From: Escherichia phage ECO340P1
DNA: 64,000 nucleotides
Sequence record: OP172791
Reading direction: 5' to 3' (one strand)
Position numbers and translations under genes: made by a program. Positions 5,963 to 16,606 of this stretch are shown piece by piece (position 1 is the stretch's first letter; each line of letters opens with the position of its first letter). The notes beneath the pieces are model-generated. The model was given only the letters and a program-made list of their open reading frames with translations, had not been told where the DNA came from and searched no databases.

Positions 5963-6328
5963 TTATAAATCTTTTTTACGTTTTACATCGCTCGCATGAC
6001 TGTATACAGTGATCCCATTGTCACGGCAAAAACGGGAAAGATACGCGCCGCGTGAAAACTCTTTACCTTCCATATTAATAACCTTGCTAAATTCTTCCAG
6101 GGCGACGGTATCAAAATGATCACCATAGCCATATTGAAACGGAACGTTAACCACCTCGATCAGTTTACCGCCGATCTCAACGTCAACCATTAAAGAAAAA
6201 TATGTGTTACCGTAGGACTGTTGAAACCAGCGACGGGCGCTAATGTGCACCGCTTCAATGCTGGATAATTCAATTTTAGCCGTGTTAGCCAGGGTAGCAT
6301 AAGCGGAAACATTGATATTAATAGCCAT
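5963..6328 (-). CDS. hypothetical protein (121 aa)
   Basis: ORF downstream of cassette. Confidence 0.6.
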   Translation of the reverse strand: MAININVSAYATLANTAKIELSSIEAVHISARRWFQQSYGNTYFSLMVDVEIGGKLIEVVNVPFQYGYGDHFDTVALEEFSKVINMEGKEFSRGAYLSRFCRDNGITVYSHASDVKRKKDL

Positions 6329-6354
6329 GATGATAATCTCTCTTTTTGGTTAGT

Positions 6355-6406
6355 GGGAAGTATTCCCGATAAAAGTTATTATGCTTATACTATCACTCAT
6401 TGTCAA
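6355..6406 (-). promoter_or_regulatory. promoter-hairpin cassette for 5963-6328
   Basis: TTGACA 6401-6406, N17, CATAAT 6378-6383, hairpin GGGAA-GTA-TTCCC. Confidence 0.55.
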
Positions 6407-6425
6407 TAGTATAAGACTAAAACTT

Positions 6426-6605
6426 TTAACGATAATCGTTATAGGCTTTATTGACCTGGCGAATGTAACATTCGAAAGCAAGATCAATGTATTCGTATTC
6501 ACGCACATAATCACCATAGGTCACTACATACATTTTTAAAGTTTCCTCATAAGCCAGGAGGATCGAATCTAAACCTATAATCTCAGTTTTTGCAATGATA
6601 GCCAT
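6426..6605 (-). CDS. small hypothetical protein (59 aa)
   Basis: Unlisted ORF with SD AAAAGG after cassette. Confidence 0.45.
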   Translation of the reverse strand: MAIIAKTEIIGLDSILLAYEETLKMYVVTYGDYVREYEYIDLAFECYIRQVNKAYNDYR

Positions 6606-6625
6606 GATGTTAACCTTTTATTGTT

Positions 6626-6682
6626 GGCGGCACCATTGCCGCCCTACGTGATAAACTATACCAGAAGTTTAAACAGTGTCAA
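6626..6682 (-). promoter_or_regulatory. promoter-hairpin cassette for 6426-6605
   Basis: TTGACA 6677-6682, N16, TATAGT 6655-6660, hairpin 6626-6643. Confidence 0.6.
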
Positions 6683-6688
6683 CCGTTT

Positions 6689-7051
6689 TTATTCGTAAAT
6701 TTTACCGCTTTCGGCCCATACCATAACGCGGCGCATACTATCCCAAGTGTTTTGATCCAGGTTTAATCCGTGCAATTCTTCGGTACTTCCCAGACCAGGT
6801 ACCGCCTTGTTGTAAGTTGCATATAAGCGCCCTTGATACTCATACGCCAGGGTGAGATCCGTTTGAATCATCTTTTTAAGCATAGCATTAAGCATCATAT
6901 TAGCGGCATGTTGATCACGTTTTAGCGGTAACATATCAATAAGGGCGCGATAAGCTGAAACATGAATATCAACCGTTTCACGTGGTAAATTTTTCATCTC
7001 ATCGCGGAAAGATACCAGATTAAACATGATAGTATTGATTTGCTTGCTCAT
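6689..7051 (-). CDS. hypothetical protein (120 aa)
   Basis: Track ORF trimmed to ATG with SD AAAGGG after hairpin. Confidence 0.6.
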   Translation of the reverse strand: MSKQINTIMFNLVSFRDEMKNLPRETVDIHVSAYRALIDMLPLKRDQHAANMMLNAMLKKMIQTDLTLAYEYQGRLYATYNKAVPGLGSTEELHGLNLDQNTWDSMRRVMVWAESGKIYE

Positions 7052-9343: not shown

Positions 9344-9559
9344 TGTTTTACATACAGAAGAGGAAGCGCCACCCCACGGCGTAAAGGCGGGGCTAACATA
9401 CCAGGGGGCACTGGTTGGAAGGTTGATCGCCGGTAGGCTGGGCGCTATATATTTGTAAAGAAATGTAAAGATAAAATAATCGCTTGCTTTCCTGGCTGGA
9501 TCTGTTATTCTTATTACATGGCGAGGGGACACGGGAGCGCGAGACAAACACCGCCCCTG

Positions 9560-9945
9560 CGCGTCATTCTCTAAATGAGAATGATTATCATTTACCTTAT
9601 CAAATAAGAATCAATCTCATTTATAAACCTAAATGCGAATCATTATCATTTGCATTTCCATATGAGAACTCTTCTCATTCTCATCTGCATAAATTTTTGT
9701 AAACTTTAAATTTTGCTTTTGTACTTTCATTTTTGTAAAAGCAAAAAAACTTTAAATACTGTGGGCGCGCAAAATTTTTAAAATTTTCCTTGACTTTTGA
9801 GTTTTGTTTTGTATCTGACATTTTAAGATAATTTTCCTAAACTTTAAATTTTGGTTTTCAACTTTCACTTTTGTAAATTCTTAAAAAGTTTAAATAATTT
9901 GAGGGATTTTTGAGATAATAGGTAATGGGAATTTGAGATAACCTT
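9560..9945. repeat. AT-rich non-coding region with direct repeats (candidate replication origin)
   Basis: ~42 bp direct repeat at 9698-9741 and 9837-9880; ATGAGAATGATTATCATTT-like repeats at 9575-9685; TTTGAGATAA twice at 9909-9941. Confidence 0.45.
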
Positions 9946-10119: not shown

Positions 10120-10662
10120 TCACAAATATCGTCTTTGCGGTATTTTGTCTGGGAAAAGTATTTCGATCAGTTTGTTATGATATTTGCCTAAAAGATTCTG
10201 CCCTTTCCAGGTGGCAGGGTTTAGCACCCCTGGTTCATACATCCCCATTCCAATTCCGTAAACCTTATCGTAGGGGCTTGCTTCAACAAACGTTTTGTAT
10301 TGGTAAAGGTGTAAGTCTGCATACAAATCTGGATTCTGTACATATTTCAAGCATAAACCTCGCATAACAATACGCTCACGGTTCTCTTCCCATACGTTGT
10401 TATCAAAATCCGACACTGCCCTACCCATACGTTTGTAATAAGCTTGTTTCCTCTCGTTGTCACGTATAGTCGAGTGATCAAGGATAGCTGCTGCAATCGC
10501 ATGATCCTTGAACAGCAAAGCCTTACGCCACATCATATATTGCTCAACACAACAGAAAGTCTCATTGTAACCTGGTTCGGTTTCTGTAAAGGGTGCAATA
10601 TACCAATTACTAAAAACATCTTTATGTGAAAAGAAGAATACATAATCATCCGTTATTCGCAT
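10120..10662 (-). CDS. NADAR (DUF1768, YbiA-like) domain protein
   Basis: Motifs FSNW, CVEQYMMWRKALLF, MGR, SPYDKVYGIGMG, WKGQNLLG align with NADAR family pattern. Confidence 0.8.
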   Translation of the reverse strand: MRITDDYVFFFSHKDVFSNWYIAPFTETEPGYNETFCCVEQYMMWRKALLFKDHAIAAAILDHSTIRDNERKQAYYKRMGRAVSDFDNNVWEENRERIVMRGLCLKYVQNPDLYADLHLYQYKTFVEASPYDKVYGIGMGMYEPGVLNPATWKGQNLLGKYHNKLIEILFPDKIPQRRYL

Positions 10663-10850: not shown

Positions 10851-11216
10851 TTAATCCATCCACCAGTAGCCATAAACTGCGTCTGCGTCGATGAGTTTGT
10901 GTTTGTTGTTCCGCATGTAGTCTAAGATAAGTAGACGTTTATTGTATCTGGAGAGATTATGACCCTCTTTTCCGCCATAGTCAAAATATTTTGCAAGATC
11001 TTTGCACTCAAACAAAATTAGTTCAGGAGTTTCTTCACACTGGTCTGTCTGGTACACTTGACGAATGATCATGTATACATCGTCGTCTTCCGCTAAATGC
11101 TCTACTGGTCCACATCCAGCAGGAACAAATTCATAGTCCCATCGAATCAGATGTTTCTCTACTGCTTCAAAGAAATCCATCCTTTCGTTGCGCATAATTT
11201 GAACGTCAACTAACAT
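10851..11216 (-). CDS. hypothetical protein (121 aa)
   Basis: ORF with SD ACAGGAGAAAA. Confidence 0.55.
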   Translation of the reverse strand: MLVDVQIMRNERMDFFEAVEKHLIRWDYEFVPAGCGPVEHLAEDDDVYMIIRQVYQTDQCEETPELILFECKDLAKYFDYGGKEGHNLSRYNKRLLILDYMRNNKHKLIDADAVYGYWWMD

Positions 11217-12412
11217 GTTTTCTCCTGTAATGTTCCACCATAAAGTTTATAAATGTTTTGTATTGAGGCCATGCAAGATAACTCTACTGTTTCTGTGTAG
11301 CCATCTGGCATAGCATATTTGCTCACTGCTTCCGTGTGAAGGACACGCTTACAACGCTTCTCTGCATCTTTGCATTGCTTCACAGTAGGGAAGTGCCACA
11401 CTTGGACCTGTTTCATAGTAAACACATTACGACTATTTTGTTTTTTGATACGGCGATCACTATTATTGGCAATTCCAAATTTCAAAGCACAGAGAATACC
11501 TTGTTCATCATGAATGTGGTTAATGTAACATTGTTGTTGTGTCTGGTTAGCACATTGCGGACAACCAGTGCCATGATTTAACAAACCACTGGCACGTCCT
11601 ATTTGTACCCCATGTTTCTTACATCCATATTTAAACTTACCTAATCTTACAGACGGTTTCCCGATCCAACCTACCCAGATATACCCTTTCCTTTCTACTG
11701 CCTTTTTTACCCTATAGGTAATCTGTGCTTCTGTGTAATGACAATTAGTTGCACAACGGCAAGGAATCTTCCCTTGTTTAAGGTCATTCCCTGCGACATA
11801 AAACTTACCATCACACACCCCAGCTTGCACATACTCATCGTGAGAGCAGGCAGGACACTCTACACACCATAAAGAATCGCGGCCTCGTTTTTTATCTGTT
11901 TTAGTGAAGATTGTACCCTCTTTAAACTTTCCTGTATTAATGAAGTCTTGTATGTGCTGATCGTCTGGAAGTATTTTAGAATTCCTAGATCTTTTGTTAC
12001 CGCATTTAGGACAACCACTACCACCCTTAAGATTATGAAATGTTAATGTTCGCCATTCCCCGTGCTCAGGACAAAGGTTGATCATCTTTGTATGTACACC
12101 TATAAACTCTCCATTAATGCCTAAAATCTTGATTCCCTTAGCTTCAGCAATAGGTTTACATTCCGAAAGGTAATAATCTAGGTTTTTACTGTTGTCTTGT
12201 CTTGCTTTCTCATTTTTGCACCTAGGGCAACCAGACTTACCACGTTTAAAATTGGCAAATGTGGATGTTCTCCACTCCCCATGATTAGGGCAGAAGTTGA
12301 TCATCTTCGTGTGCACACCTTTAAATGGCTCTACAATCCCTATAATCTCATATCCTTTAGCTTCCGCTATTGGTTTACATTCTCCTATATACTGTTCTAA
12401 CGTCTTCGCCAT
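11210..12412 (-). CDS. Cys-rich protein with duplicated Zn-ribbon modules, possible homing-endonuclease-like
   Basis: Two repeats ECKPIAEAKG...CPxHGEWRT...GCPxC; C-terminal KFGIANNSDRR resembles T5orf172/GIY-YIG-like motif. Confidence 0.5.
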   Translation of the reverse strand: MAKTLEQYIGECKPIAEAKGYEIIGIVEPFKGVHTKMINFCPNHGEWRTSTFANFKRGKSGCPRCKNEKARQDNSKNLDYYLSECKPIAEAKGIKILGINGEFIGVHTKMINLCPEHGEWRTLTFHNLKGGSGCPKCGNKRSRNSKILPDDQHIQDFINTGKFKEGTIFTKTDKKRGRDSLWCVECPACSHDEYVQAGVCDGKFYVAGNDLKQGKIPCRCATNCHYTEAQITYRVKKAVERKGYIWVGWIGKPSVRLGKFKYGCKKHGVQIGRASGLLNHGTGCPQCANQTQQQCYINHIHDEQGILCALKFGIANNSDRRIKKQNSRNVFTMKQVQVWHFPTVKQCKDAEKRCKRVLHTEAVSKYAMPDGYTETVELSCMASIQNIYKLYGGTLQEKTC

Positions 12413-12456
12413 CTTTATCTATCCTCTCTCCCTATAAGTCTGAAGTCAATATAACA

Positions 12457-12476
12457 AAACCCGCCGAAGCGGGTTT
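12457..12476. terminator. terminator hairpin (internal to leftward operon)
   Basis: AAACCCGC-CGAA-GCGGGTTT followed by T-rich sequence on both strands. Confidence 0.55.
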
Positions 12477-12492
12477 AGTTATTTGTGCTGTA

Positions 12493-13632
12493 TCAGAACA
12501 CGCTACCCAGTGTAGTGGAACGTTGTGTTACAGGCTCCAGCACCACTCGCAGAGTGTTTCCTGGTGTAGTGCTCATCACCAGAATCTTACCACCTTCAAT
12601 CAGATCACAAGTTAGACCATCAGCAGTTGCACACAGATCAATATGTGGATCGCCATCTTCATCCAGGATAACATAACTGTTGGTTTCCATTGCTTCCACT
12701 TCATCATCTTTCAAACTTTGTAGATAGATGTTCAGGGAACAAGCACCCGACAAAAACTTAGTAGGGGTGAAGTCGTGCCAGTTATTGATCCAATTCACCT
12801 TCAAGGTTTTGCCATTAGCTACGATAGAAGCCACATTCCATTTAGCATCGTTCCCTAAAGAAATACCCATCATTTCAAGACATTCTTTAAAAGTCATTTT
12901 TGGATAGAAATTCAATTCTTCTACAATGCCTTGAATAACATCGAAAGACAACTCTGTGCTAACATCCCATAAACGTTGGAAGTTATCTACGTGCTTTTTA
13001 TTTACCAAGTTCTTATCCAAGTAATCTAACATAGTTTCACTAGATAGTTTATCGTAATTGAAACTGTAGTAGATACGACTAGGACGGTTTACAAAATATT
13101 CCGAGATATAGCCACTATTTTTAGTGAGGATGTAAAGTTTATTCCCACTTCCTGTTCCATCCAACAAGGTCAACAGTGCTTCCTGATCTTCTTTCTTAGC
13201 GTACACTTTATCAAATTCGTCAAATAAAACAACAGCACGATCTGTAATTTTACTCATAAATTCTAAGAAGCCAGCATCTGTGTAAGGCTGTGTAACCAAA
13301 ATGGTTGGAATACCTAAACCTTCTGTGGACATTAGAGACATGCTAATCAGTTTAGCTAACATCGTCTTACCACTGCCCTTTGTCCCTGTCAGTAACACCC
13401 CAGTATTTTTACCTTCTTTACTACGACGAGCAAATGTTTTAATAACATGTGCGGCGCGGTCTTTAGTTTCCCCATAAAGAGTGTTCGGAAGAGAGAAACT
13501 TTCGCCACGCACTAAAGAGTAGTTACCGTGCGGATCGCAGTTGACAACCCAAACTCCAGCAGGAAGTTTATTAGCTTCAACACCATATTCCTTATTTACA
13601 ACAGCCACATCTCCAAAAATAGTGTATTTCAT
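12493..13632 (-). CDS. AAA+ ATPase
   Basis: Walker A GTKGSGKT and Walker B VVLFDEFD; unknown C-terminal domain. Confidence 0.65.
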   Translation of the reverse strand: MKYTIFGDVAVVNKEYGVEANKLPAGVWVVNCDPHGNYSLVRGESFSLPNTLYGETKDRAAHVIKTFARRSKEGKNTGVLLTGTKGSGKTMLAKLISMSLMSTEGLGIPTILVTQPYTDAGFLEFMSKITDRAVVLFDEFDKVYAKKEDQEALLTLLDGTGSGNKLYILTKNSGYISEYFVNRPSRIYYSFNYDKLSSETMLDYLDKNLVNKKHVDNFQRLWDVSTELSFDVIQGIVEELNFYPKMTFKECLEMMGISLGNDAKWNVASIVANGKTLKVNWINNWHDFTPTKFLSGACSLNIYLQSLKDDEVEAMETNSYVILDEDGDPHIDLCATADGLTCDLIEGGKILVMSTTPGNTLRVVLEPVTQRSTTLGSVF

Positions 13633-13988
13633 TAGAACGTTTCTCCTTTTAAAATAATTACTGTAAACTTTGCAGTTTTTTCACTCTTAATATTCTTGAC
13701 TAATAAGTACTCTCCTCCAGGGGCATCTTTGTATTGTTTAATAGCTACTATTTCATTTTTGCAAGTAGCTATAATCGAATAAAAAGGACGTTCCGTGTTA
13801 TCTTCTTTTCCTGTATATGCCTCAACATCTTGGCACTCTTCCAGAACACCATTTCCAGGTGTATAGTAAAATTTGTTGCCTGTGATCACAACATCTTTAC
13901 CAATATCTGTTTTAACTGCTACAAATTTTTGAGCGTAAGTGGTGAAGCTTACGGTAGCCAGCAATGTGGCTAAGATTAGTTTTTTCAT
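13632..13988 (-). CDS. secreted or periplasmic protein (118 aa)
   Basis: ATG 13988 with SD GGAGGGAAG; signal peptide MKKLILATLLATVSFTTYA. Confidence 0.55.
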   Translation of the reverse strand: MKKLILATLLATVSFTTYAQKFVAVKTDIGKDVVITGNKFYYTPGNGVLEECQDVEAYTGKEDNTERPFYSIIATCKNEIVAIKQYKDAPGGEYLLVKNIKSEKTAKFTVIILKGETF

Positions 13989-13999
13989 AAACTTCCCTC

Positions 14000-14164
14000 C
14001 TATTCCCACAACATACAAATCGCAGCGATAAACATATTAGCAATAGCCGCACCAAGAACTATAAACATCGCCAGTTCTGAACAATATTCACCAACCAGAG
14101 GAGATACTATTGCACAAAGTAGTCCCAATGTCAAACACAAATTGATGATGAAGTTTAAAATCAT
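14000..14164 (-). CDS. small membrane protein (54 aa)
   Basis: Unlisted ORF with SD AAGGAGAGAAT; two hydrophobic segments. Confidence 0.4.
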   Translation of the reverse strand: MILNFIINLCLTLGLLCAIVSPLVGEYCSELAMFIVLGAAIANMFIAAICMLWE

Positions 14165-14173
14165 ATTCTCTCC

Positions 14174-14338
14174 TTACAACCAACCCTTTGCCTGGTAGCC
14201 TTTAGAAAATCCATTTTCCCATTCTTCGAATTCCTTTTTGTGTGTCATTGGACAGTATGGATTTACTTTATTAAACATACCAAACTTGAACCCTGCGGTA
14301 TACCCTTTCTTAAAAGCTATTGATTCTAAAGAGATCAT
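14174..14338 (-). CDS. hypothetical protein (54 aa)
   Basis: ATG 14338 with SD AAGAGGAGAAA (track start is TTG). Confidence 0.45.
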   Translation of the reverse strand: MISLESIAFKKGYTAGFKFGMFNKVNPYCPMTHKKEFEEWENGFSKGYQAKGWL

Positions 14339-14351
14339 ATTCTTTCTCCTC

Positions 14352-14603
14352 TTAGAACTCGACAATGATTTTGTCTAAGTGTTCTGCTTCAACTTGGGAT
14401 AATGTTAACACCTGCACCAAACCTCTGTCAATGCCTAATTTGATCACTTGCAAATAATCACCGAAAAGATCAGAGATTTCAATCTGGTGTTCAGTAACCA
14501 CCACGACCTCGTTACCCTTGGTATACTCTCTCCAGATTCGTCCACACTTGTAAATGAAATCTTTCTGGTCTTCACTGATCATCTTAGGCTTAACGCTTAA
14601 CAT
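14352..14603 (-). CDS. hypothetical protein (83 aa)
   Basis: ORF with SD GGGAG; TAATG overlap with upstream gene. Confidence 0.55.
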   Translation of the reverse strand: MLSVKPKMISEDQKDFIYKCGRIWREYTKGNEVVVVTEHQIEISDLFGDYLQVIKLGIDRGLVQVLTLSQVEAEHLDKIIVEF

Positions 14604-14941
14604 TACATACTCCCGTATTCTGGTTCAATATTATGTTTACGACAAATGGTATCCCAACGTTCATTACCAAAACTTCTTCCATGTAGAGCGTTAAATGCGA
14701 AATGCTCTGCCAACCACAATACTACATCATCAGGATCTGTGTCAAGAGGAATTCTAAACTCTCGATCATAACGCATACGCAGAATAAAATCCTTATCATC
14801 TTCAAGGAGATACATGTGACTTTTAGCCCGTGATGCCAAATCAAAGAAAGGAGGCTCATCTTTCCAAACGTGACGCTCAACTTCAACACCATGATCAACT
14901 ACCAGAGTAGCGATCACCTCTCTCATTTCTTTACTAAACAT
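14603..14941 (-). CDS. hypothetical protein (112 aa)
   Basis: ATG 14941 with SD GGAGGT (track start is TTG). Confidence 0.55.
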   Translation of the reverse strand: MFSKEMREVIATLVVDHGVEVERHVWKDEPPFFDLASRAKSHMYLLEDDKDFILRMRYDREFRIPLDTDPDDVVLWLAEHFAFNALHGRSFGNERWDTICRKHNIEPEYGSM

Positions 14942-14951
14942 ATTACCTCCA

Positions 14952-15128
14952 TTAACCAATTAGTTCAACTGCTTTGCAGATGTAGATCCAAACCGGAGTG
15001 AGCATAAGAGCTATACCGAATGCACAATTCCACTTAATTCCCATTTCCTCTATTAGAGACATGATTAAGCCAACAGCACTAATAATCAAATAGATCCCTA
15101 AGAAAGCCATTGTGAAGAATTCAGACAT
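14952..15128 (-). CDS. small membrane protein (58 aa)
   Basis: ATG 15128 with SD TGGAG; hydrophobic. Confidence 0.45.
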   Translation of the reverse strand: MSEFFTMAFLGIYLIISAVGLIMSLIEEMGIKWNCAFGIALMLTPVWIYICKAVELIG

Positions 15129-15130
15129 AT

Positions 15131-15487
15131 TTAACTCCAAAGATTATCAAAATAACTAGCGAATAAAAGACGGCCCTCTAATCGTGCCTTCCTTTGATCT
15201 TCAGCATACACGATTTCTGGATTACCACTATCAATAAAAGCATTCTCCATCTTTTCTAAAATATTTAACCACTCTCTTCTACCTGTCTCCTCTTCTTCAT
15301 CTGTATACGGCGCACTTCTATTTGGATACAAAACACGCATCAGTTTAGTGGGGATCATGACAAACGTGCTATTGTTTGCCTTCTCACGGAAGGCTTTAAT
15401 TCCTGCATAGATTACCTTCCCCAAAGCTGCATCCAAATCCATCAGGTCACTTTCTTCTATTTGAATTTCATCGTGTACAATTTTCAT
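15131..15487 (-). CDS. hypothetical protein (118 aa)
   Basis: ORF with SD GGGAGAAGG; ATGA overlap upstream. Confidence 0.55.
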   Translation of the reverse strand: MKIVHDEIQIEESDLMDLDAALGKVIYAGIKAFREKANNSTFVMIPTKLMRVLYPNRSAPYTDEEEETGRREWLNILEKMENAFIDSGNPEIVYAEDQRKARLEGRLLFASYFDNLWS

Positions 15488-15771
15488 CGTGCCTTCTCCC
15501 GATCTGCATCTAATTTCAACAAGAAAGCTGTATACTCTTCCGAACCTTGGTGTAAAAACATGTGATAAGAGCTTACCAGTTTCTTCGTTGTCGTATAACG
15601 TTCCATTTCCCCAACAACACCTCCACCTAGTGTGTAGAGCACAATACCTTCAACTCCAACATGTGTTACTACTTCAACCAAATCTGTGTTATCCCAATAG
15701 TAGTTAGGTGACACAATAAGATCGCCCACTGCCAGTTTAATGTTTGCTACTTCATCTTGTGAATAATACAT
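15484..15771 (-). CDS. hypothetical protein (95 aa)
   Basis: ATG 15771 with SD AGAGAGGAGAA. Confidence 0.5.
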   Translation of the reverse strand: MYYSQDEVANIKLAVGDLIVSPNYYWDNTDLVEVVTHVGVEGIVLYTLGGGVVGEMERYTTTKKLVSSYHMFLHQGSEEYTAFLLKLDADREKAR

Positions 15772-15808
15772 TTGGTTCTCCTCTCTTAATTGATGGAAAT
15801 AGTATACC

Positions 15809-16300
15809 TTACCACATAATCTCGCGCAACTCTTTTTCTTCTTTAAAATTACGTAAGTTTTCCAGTGCACGATTTAGGTCTTCTTCCGTCTCTGCTTTCT
15901 GGACTTTTTCCATTATTTTCGCAACAATATTTTTCTTAACTTGCAAATCTGGAACAGGCATACGTTTTTCCATTTCATAAGCTTCTCGTTTATGACGTTC
16001 CTCCATCTCTGCTTTTTCTTTCACCCAATCCGCCTCGTCCATTGCACCTTTGCAGACACAAGTGTAACCTTTAATAGTATAATCCCCATGTTCAATACCA
16101 GGTTGAAGAGCTAAGGCTTCATTACCACAATACGCGCACAACGGACGACCTGGCATTTTCAAAGTTTTGGTAGCCTTAGCGCCACATTGACTATCCCAGC
16201 TTGTTTTATAACTGGAACCGTTGTCTCCGTGAGAACGACCAACCAAGAAGTTACGGAAGAAACCCATAGCACGTTCGTCAATGTAATCAGGGTAAGCCAT
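15809..16300 (-). CDS. hypothetical Cys-containing protein (163 aa)
   Basis: ORF with SD AAAGGAGAA; CAYCG and CVCKG motifs. Confidence 0.55.
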   Translation of the reverse strand: MAYPDYIDERAMGFFRNFLVGRSHGDNGSSYKTSWDSQCGAKATKTLKMPGRPLCAYCGNEALALQPGIEHGDYTIKGYTCVCKGAMDEADWVKEKAEMEERHKREAYEMEKRMPVPDLQVKKNIVAKIMEKVQKAETEEDLNRALENLRNFKEEKELREIMW

Positions 16301-16312
16301 TATATTCTCCTT

Positions 16313-16606
16313 TCACATTAAGACACGTTTTGTGTCGATGGGTGCATTATCAAACATGTTAAGAACATTGTCAAGCAGTTTTACTAATTCCTTTGTAATT
16401 TGTTCTTTTGAACGGGAGGAAGTGAGCACTTTGCTTTCACCAACGATATGCATAACTTTTATAGGAGCGTCTAAAATGATGTTGTGTTGACGATCCTCTT
16501 CAAAAGAAGCCAACCATTTCTCATTGTTACCGTGCAAGGCTACAATCACACCAAAACCGTTAATTGTTTCGGAAATATTTTTAGTTGCTAAAGTAATGTT
16601 CATCAT
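16313..16606 (-). CDS. hypothetical protein (first gene of leftward operon; start 16606 or 16603)
   Basis: ORF with SD AGAGAGG; promoter TTGATC-N16-TATCAT upstream. Confidence 0.5.
   Translation of the reverse strand: MMNITLATKNISETINGFGVIVALHGNNEKWLASFEEDRQHNIILDAPIKVMHIVGESKVLTSSRSKEQITKELVKLLDNVLNMFDNAPIDTKRVLM

Follow-up and report, generated by a model that had tools for sequence, protein, structure and literature searches.

What does a stand-alone AAA+ ATPase do in a large virulent phage, and does it work with the small envelope proteins encoded beside it? This question is raised by a 64,000-nucleotide stretch of DNA (the window) from Escherichia phage ECO340P1 (sequence record OP172791), a phAPEC8-like E. 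coli myovirus (Phapecoctavirus, subfamily Stephanstirmvirinae). A leftward transcription unit in the window carries genes for a two-helix membrane peptide, a predicted periplasmic protein and an ATPase of 379 amino acids (aa). Classic AAA motors are central to cellular protein quality control and remodelling, but we know of no characterised phage-encoded stand-alone motor of this class, nor was one found in the literature searched. Here we show that the gene, which is already annotated, belongs to a very large and so far uncharacterised branch of this well-known motor family, one confined to phages. We propose that its product is probably a self-contained, ring-forming, classic-clade AAA polypeptide unfoldase or remodeller that acts alone.

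The ATPase gene and the parts of its product lie at the following positions.

12493–13632, minus strand: AAA ATPase gene, 379 aa plus stop, equivalent to phAPEC8 gp014 ('ATPase'); from the open reading frame (ORF), protein identity, Pfam AAA, PHROG 2376 and an AlphaFold2 model
13489–13632, minus strand: N-terminal domain, residues 1–48, five short beta strands (AlphaFold2 model)
directly after the N-terminal domain, minus strand: conserved linker P-x-K-h-Y-G-(D/E)-T, residues 49–56 (homologue alignment)
13048–13467, minus strand: AAA alpha/beta core, residues 56–195 (AlphaFold2 model)
13363–13386, minus strand: Walker A, GTKGSGKT, residues 83–90 (sequence, 77 homologues)
13273–13293, minus strand: pore loop 1, TQPYTDA, residues 114–120, with aromatic Y117 (77 homologues)
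13210–13233, minus strand: Walker B, VVLFDEFD, residues 134–141 (VVLFDE is 134–139; D138 and E139 invariant)
13075–13128, minus strand: sensor-1 (T170, N172) and second region of homology with arginine fingers R183-P-S-R186 (77 homologues)
12868–13041, minus strand: helical lid, residues 198–255, motif SFDVIQGIVEELNFY (AlphaFold2 model)
12496–12867, minus strand: family-specific C-terminal beta domain, residues 256–379 (AlphaFold2 model)
12646–12666, minus strand: acidic loop LDEDGDP, residues 323–329 (alignment)
12496–12513, minus strand: flexible tail ending in Phe, residues 374–379 (low model confidence)

Profile searches confirmed the AAA+ assignment that a first-pass annotation, made from the sequence alone, had based on Walker motifs. 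The 379-aa protein passes the Pfam AAA model PF00004 (29.9 bits over residues 79–170; cut-off 21.2), is matched end to end by PHROG 2376 ('ATPase'; E = 3.9e-111) and carries both GTKGSGKT and VVLFDE. It is 100% identical to the products of genes annotated 'ATPase' in more than 60 phage genomes. Scans of the ATPase and six neighbouring proteins against Pfam, NCBIfam, PADLOC and PHROG returned only generic AAA matches and PHROGs of unknown function, and none of the NCBIfam or PADLOC models came near its cut-off for the ATPase.

We then compared the protein with its relatives, using an alignment of 44 sequences and conservation counts over 77 homologues, whose identity to the query has a median of 31%. 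In the N-terminal region, G7, Y53 and G54 are invariant or nearly so. The Walker A residues G83, G86, G88 and K89 are invariant and K85 is kept in 75 of the 77; the signalling motif L-x-x-L-D-G (L154, D158, G159) is likewise invariant, as are T170, N172, R183, P184 and R186. Most members read NRPGR at the arginine fingers, the canonical classic-AAA motif and signature double arginine finger, and the window ATPase reads NRPSR. Position 117 in pore loop 1 is W, Y or F in 75/77 homologues and is followed by x-Gly in 64/77; the clade of the window ATPase has Y-T-D here, retaining the aromatic residue and replacing the Gly by Asp. In the lid, F230, D231 and N241 are invariant and E238 and E239 nearly so, and the 77 homologues share no invariant sensor-2 Arg.

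An AlphaFold2 model (mean predicted local distance difference test score of 85) places a single helix (120–128) between strands 110–113 and 133–137, and only short helices before strand 165–171; no helix-2 insert, pre-sensor-1 hairpin or initiator-type extra helix is present in the model. Taken together, the motifs and the predicted fold point to the classic AAA clade, a group of proteins that unfold or remodel other proteins, and count against a helicase loader, an initiator, a clamp loader, a MoxR protein or a terminase.

The unusual parts of the protein lie towards its C terminus. The first-pass annotation had described the C-terminal domain as unknown, and this still stands: the domain is beta-rich and the search for a fold relative found none. 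Its acidic loop occurs throughout the family at variable length. Diverse homologues end in Phe or Tyr in 62 of 77 cases, compared with 8.6% of neighbouring ORFs, and the commonest ending is D-A-F. The tail resembles the docking tails of protease-activating ATPases, and its low confidence in the model is what would be expected of a flexible docking peptide. We regard this conserved C-terminal Phe tail as the most promising lead that the family offers.

The family itself is large. An exhaustive profile search found 5,075 representative proteins (clusters at 50% identity) with E ≤ 1e-3, 2,963 of them with E ≤ 1e-30. The 150 members listed are mostly 345–440 aa long with a single matched stretch; a few are shorter fragments and two reach about 490 aa. 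It is a very large, phage-only family of stand-alone, single-module proteins. Among isolate genomes, it occurs in about 390 phage records from unrelated taxa: Stephanstirmvirinae; Enterococcus, Bacillus and Lactobacillus Herelleviridae; 949-type lactococcal phages and Staphylococcus phages of about 90 kb; Rak2/GAP32-type jumbo phages; Aeromonas, Proteus and Salmonella phages of the 7-11 type; and an N4-like Alteromonas phage, actinobacteriophages and crAss-like phages. The carriers include some Schitoviridae. Strong purifying selection acts on the residues of the catalytic site and the pore, which argues that the family does something important. No classical model phage is among the family matches listed, which may explain the lack of functional study; the literature searched contained no characterised family member, and papers on the Eco2 retron and KpAvs2 mention Stephanstirmvirinae in connection with other genes.

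Phapecoctavirus records show a single ATPase copy, and the sister genus Justusliebigvirus carries two paralogues. The second Justusliebigvirus copy (6001–6873 in locus L016; also in L011 and L015) is 43–44% identical and adjoins genes for anaerobic ribonucleotide reductase, orotate phosphoribosyltransferase and a phosphatase.

Our proposal of a motor that acts alone builds on the fold, on how well the catalytic and pore motifs are conserved, on the size and spread of the family, and on the absence of any conserved neighbour. What we infer is that the protein forms a ring and translocates polypeptides, what its N- and C-terminal domains do, and what kind of substrate it acts on. The subunits would most likely assemble into a ring, in which each subunit would contribute R183 and R186 to complete the ATP site of the adjacent one. 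Hydrolysis of ATP would move Y117 of the pore loop and pull on a substrate protein, which would thereby be unfolded or dismantled. The small N-terminal beta domain may select the substrate, and the C-terminal beta domain, with its acidic loop and Phe-ending tail, may contact a partner or a neighbouring subunit. A more specific version, to which we give little credence for now, has the conserved flexible tail dock the unfoldase onto a peptidase, either a ring of the host such as HslV or ClpP or one encoded by a phage, to make a phage-directed protease. If this were true, such a protease could remove chosen host proteins, whether defence or housekeeping factors, early in infection, and would represent a 'bring your own proteasome cap' strategy, widespread but not yet described, of large phages infecting both Gram-positive and Gram-negative hosts.

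The first-pass annotation had instead looked to the neighbours of the ATPase, and the adjoining features are as follows.

13632–13988, minus strand: predicted periplasmic protein, 118 aa from ATG, gp015, PHROG 5474 (signal-peptide reading, two Cys)
14000–14164, minus strand: two-helix membrane peptide, 54 aa, gp016, PHROG 27459 (hydropathy)
12457–12476, minus strand: intrinsic-terminator-like hairpin closing the unit after the ATPase (folding z = −5.0; hairpins at the matching position in relatives)

All three ORFs are present as first annotated (12493–13632, 13632–13988 and 14000–14164, minus strand), and their products are identical or nearly so to phAPEC8 gp014, gp015 and gp016, the last two of which are annotated as hypothetical. 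The hairpin proposed as a terminator between the ATPase and the genes beyond it was also confirmed: at 12476–12457, AAACCCGC-UUCG-GCGGGUUU precedes a U-rich tail, with a folding energy of −18.2 kcal/mol and a z-score of −5.0 relative to shuffled sequence, and Justusliebigvirus and a metagenomic relative (L087) have a hairpin at the same position. The order had to be corrected. The ATPase was placed immediately upstream of the small genes, but transcription on the minus strand runs from high to low coordinates, so that the ATPase lies downstream of both and is the last gene before the terminator (small genes, 54-aa peptide, 118-aa protein, ATPase, hairpin). The 118-aa gene's stop codon shares one base with the ATG of the ATPase (TAATG).

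The small proteins themselves fit their earlier descriptions. Read by eye from its sequence, the 118-aa protein appears to begin with a Sec-type signal peptide, MKKLILATLLATVSFTTYA followed by QK, comprising MKK, a 12-residue hydrophobic core and TYA before the Q; the protein has two Cys. The 54-aa peptide has two hydrophobic segments (Kyte–Doolittle 17-residue mean of about 2.4). Neither protein has a Pfam, NCBIfam or PADLOC match, and both fall in PHROGs of unknown function only.

These features invite the view that the ATPase, the periplasmic protein and the two-helix peptide form an envelope module for superinfection exclusion, membrane-protein extraction or host takeover. The three genes do share one transcription unit with an overlapping stop and start, the 118-aa gene adjoins the ATPase in several Stephanstirmvirinae lineages, the corresponding slot in Justusliebigvirus also holds membrane proteins, and structural neighbours of the ATPase include the membrane-linked BCS1 and Msp1/ATAD1. 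We nevertheless find such a module unlikely. No hydrophobic segment was found in the ATPase, and the small proteins accompany it in only 70 of the roughly 394 ATPase-carrying phage records. The 118-aa protein is an ORFan, with 5 clusters in a database of 5.8 billion proteins. Both small proteins change at roughly twice the rate of the ATPase; identity in the phiWec group is 80% for the ATPase and just 39% and 45% for the small proteins. The genes that fill the slot from the gp018 homologue to the ATPase differ: in the window they encode a 54-aa protein, the two-helix 54-aa peptide and the signal-peptide 118-aa protein; two metagenomic relatives (L087 and an ENA contig) have the 118-aa gene alone, without the membrane peptide; and Justusliebigvirus has a two-helix 57-aa and a membrane 145-aa protein, unrelated in sequence. 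The slot is thus a variable cassette, and the ATPase clearly persists without these neighbours. A third small two-helix membrane peptide (PHROG 22639; 14952–15140, minus strand) lies in the same leftward operon, showing that such peptides are common there and not specific to the surroundings of the ATPase.

Beyond this subfamily, we examined 80 diverse loci outside Stephanstirmvirinae, in which 1,615 mechanically called ORFs (ATPase genes included) were clustered. No neighbour cluster occurred in more than 15 of the 80 loci, giving no conserved partner gene, and the same-strand ORF directly upstream was membrane- or signal-peptide-like in 12/51 cases against a background of 20–23%, which is no enrichment. 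The family as a whole therefore does not show the proposed pairing of the ATPase with membrane or secreted proteins, which is narrow, fast-evolving, replaced in Justusliebigvirus and at background frequency elsewhere, and which amounts to local gene order inside a variable cassette. The argument from adjacency to host takeover, superinfection exclusion or counter-defence does not hold. The 118-aa and 54-aa genes are lineage-restricted neighbours, and the 118-aa protein is probably not part of the function of the ATPase. The small envelope proteins may act in superinfection exclusion, and the ATPase may have a role in host takeover or counter-defence.

Several points weigh against a remodeller that acts alone. 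The 118-aa gene lies directly upstream of the ATPase, with the same one-base overlap, in at least three Stephanstirmvirinae lineages, and this retained adjacency makes a lineage-specific functional link possible. In the neighbour test, proteins were classed as membrane- or signal-peptide-like by crude hydropathy rules applied to mechanically called ORFs. The Y-T-D of the window clade, in place of aromatic-x-Gly, could weaken threading. Finally, the literature searched held no biochemical or genetic data on any family member.

A remodeller of this kind could also serve counter-defence, dismantling a host immune complex, much as bacterial Trip13 dismantles HORMA–CdnC in CBASS, the antiphage signalling system that relies on cyclic oligonucleotides, or stripping some other host factor. 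We consider this specific role improbable. The likeness to Trip13 is generic AAA similarity, and there was no meaningful match to a PADLOC or anti-defence family: the best PADLOC hit, mad8 (E = 4.4e-5, 21 bits), reflects a generic P-loop. The family is kept in phages of Enterococcus, Bacillus, E. coli and marine hosts, which argues for a general target. Neighbour associations are also weak (at most 8–15 of 80 loci) and owe much to common ancestry among the sampled marine phages. In large virulent phages, the surroundings of homologues are auxiliary genes and genes of nucleotide metabolism: phiEF24C and Justusliebigvirus have ribonucleotide reductase there; the Alteromonas phage has ThyX and MazG-like genes, and the homologue itself stands between RNAP2 and rIIA; and marine phages have NAMPT, NadM–Nudix, RNase H and rIIA/B. 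The clusters that recur across the 80 loci (phosphatase or macro-like, SGNH hydrolase, AhpD-like, NAMPT, NadM–Nudix, rIIA/rIIB and RNase H) largely reflect this kinship rather than a partner. The NAD/ADP-ribose genes NAMPT and NadM–Nudix recur near homologues in unrelated phages at low frequency, and no association is frequent enough to assign a role.

A replication-type AAA+ protein (helicase loader, initiator or Hda-like regulator, clamp-loader subunit) is very unlikely. The first-pass annotation had asked whether homology would reveal a routine replication or packaging ATPase, and it revealed neither. All replication-type matches fall far under family cut-offs: Hda scores 19 bits against 194.8, DnaC-like PHROGs reach only E = 7e-4 to 3e-3, the NCBIfam dnaX/RFC models score 14–15 bits against cut-offs of 250–280, and the clamp-loader family PHROG 168 matches the P-loop region only (E = 1.4e-4). 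The R-P-x-R double arginine finger, L-L-D-G and the aromatic pore loop are absent from those clades, and profile matches in the PDB were to Cdc48-type proteins only. Structurally, the model lacks the initiator-specific helix between beta2 and beta3 that DnaA, DnaC, Hda or ORC/Cdc6 would call for, and its C-terminal domain is beta-rich, not the helical collar of RFC, gamma and gp44 or a winged helix. No terminase appeared among the Pfam, PHROG and NCBIfam matches, and the fold matches AAA+, not an ASCE terminase. Two labels given to homologues were also rejected: 'FtsH-like protease' (in EmilieFrey), because the protein has a C-terminal beta domain and no hydrophobic segment, Peptidase_M41 match or HExxH motif, and 'ATPase or Zn metalloprotease' (in PD06), again because it lacks an M41 domain and HExxH. 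A MoxR-type ATPase with a vWA partner fared no better: AAA_5 reaches 17 bits where 22 are required, and the operon contains no vWA gene.

Assembly and disassembly are common tasks of AAA remodellers, and only phages whose genomes reach about 75 kb or more carry the family, but a chaperone for the assembly of large virions or of a phage enzyme complex is highly improbable because, in the loci examined, the gene never lies inside structural modules and instead keeps company with small early or auxiliary and nucleotide-metabolism genes.

The wider locus is shared with close relatives. The 5.5 kb at 11000–16500 are 92–98.6% identical to many Phapecoctavirus genomes among the top matches listed. 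Some records matching at 98–98.5% bear the names 'Acinetobacter phage vB_AbaM_ABPW7' and 'Campylobacter phage B15', and Pseudomonas-labelled records are also among the matches; the host labels of all of these look doubtful. The many small ORFs and a divergent start at about 16.6 kb make an early-region location of the ATPase unit plausible; sigma-70-like matches were not enriched over shuffled sequence (24 versus 23.3). The window has no transfer RNA (tRNA) genes. In two unrelated phages, GAP32 and phiEF24C (loci L002 and L003), the homologue lies inside or beside a tRNA gene cluster, which may reflect only a common early- or middle-region location.

A homing-endonuclease-like gene (11210–12412, minus strand), with CapR and DUF723 repeats and a weak T5orf172/MUG113 nuclease signal, sits between the ATPase terminator and a 121-aa gene (10851–11216); it varies from 325 to 400 aa across relatives. 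The metagenomic relative L087 has the ATPase, the hairpin and the 121-aa gene (84% identical) without the endonuclease, which marks the endonuclease gene as an insertion. Further along is a NADAR-domain gene (10120–10662, minus strand; Pfam 1.8e-35), labelled 'YbiA-like N-glycosidase' in a sister phage. The AT-rich stretch at 9550–9910 has no convincing gene. It contains three 51-nucleotide (nt) units at 29-nt spacing, a 22-nt inverted repeat (9572–9593 and 9602–9623), a 72-nt direct repeat (9692–9763 and 9830–9901) and several promoter-like hexamer pairs, and could be a promoter cluster or a replication origin.

Together, these results bear on both annotation and biology. The labels FtsH-like protease, Hda and RFC are unsuitable for the ATPase family, and the neighbouring envelope proteins should be treated as a separate, fast-turnover cassette. 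The family spans therapy-relevant phages of Enterococcus, Bacillus, Staphylococcus and E. coli. The identity of the substrate would show how large virulent phages reshape the proteome of the host or their own.

How, then, does the ATPase compare with known systems? The N4 protein gp24, which appears as an 'AAA+ ATPase' among the core genes of N4-like phages (PMC7650795), is similarly a stand-alone phage ATPase of about 350 aa encoded in the early/middle region. It is MoxR-like and is paired with the vWA/metallopeptidase gp25, whereas the window ATPase family has no such partner; with an hhalign probability of 1.1%, gp24 is unrelated and was rejected as a family member. The Trip13/Pch2-like ATPase of type III CBASS (PDB 6p8v) is 15% identical to the window ATPase, but its HORMA/CD-NTase partners were not found in the window or in related loci. 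The resemblance to the proteasome-activating ATPases PAN/Mpa and to HslU is a lead only: the tails of the phage family read D-A-F or S-V-F instead of Hb-Y-X, the ATPase has a 120-residue beta domain between lid and tail, and no peptidase partner was found. The best profile and structural matches are Cdc48/p97 D2, NVL/Rix7, AFG2/SPATA5, NSF, Msp1 and BCS1. The ATPase differs from these in being only 15–20% identical and phage-only, with one AAA module in about 380 aa and N- and C-terminal beta domains of its own, and it lacks the transmembrane anchor of BCS1, Msp1 and FtsH. It nevertheless shares with these classic AAA proteins the absence of a sensor-2 Arg together with Walker A and B, the sensor-1 Asn, R-P-G/S-R, L-L-D-G and the aromatic residue of the pore loop, although the Gly that follows in most homologues is lost in the window ATPase.

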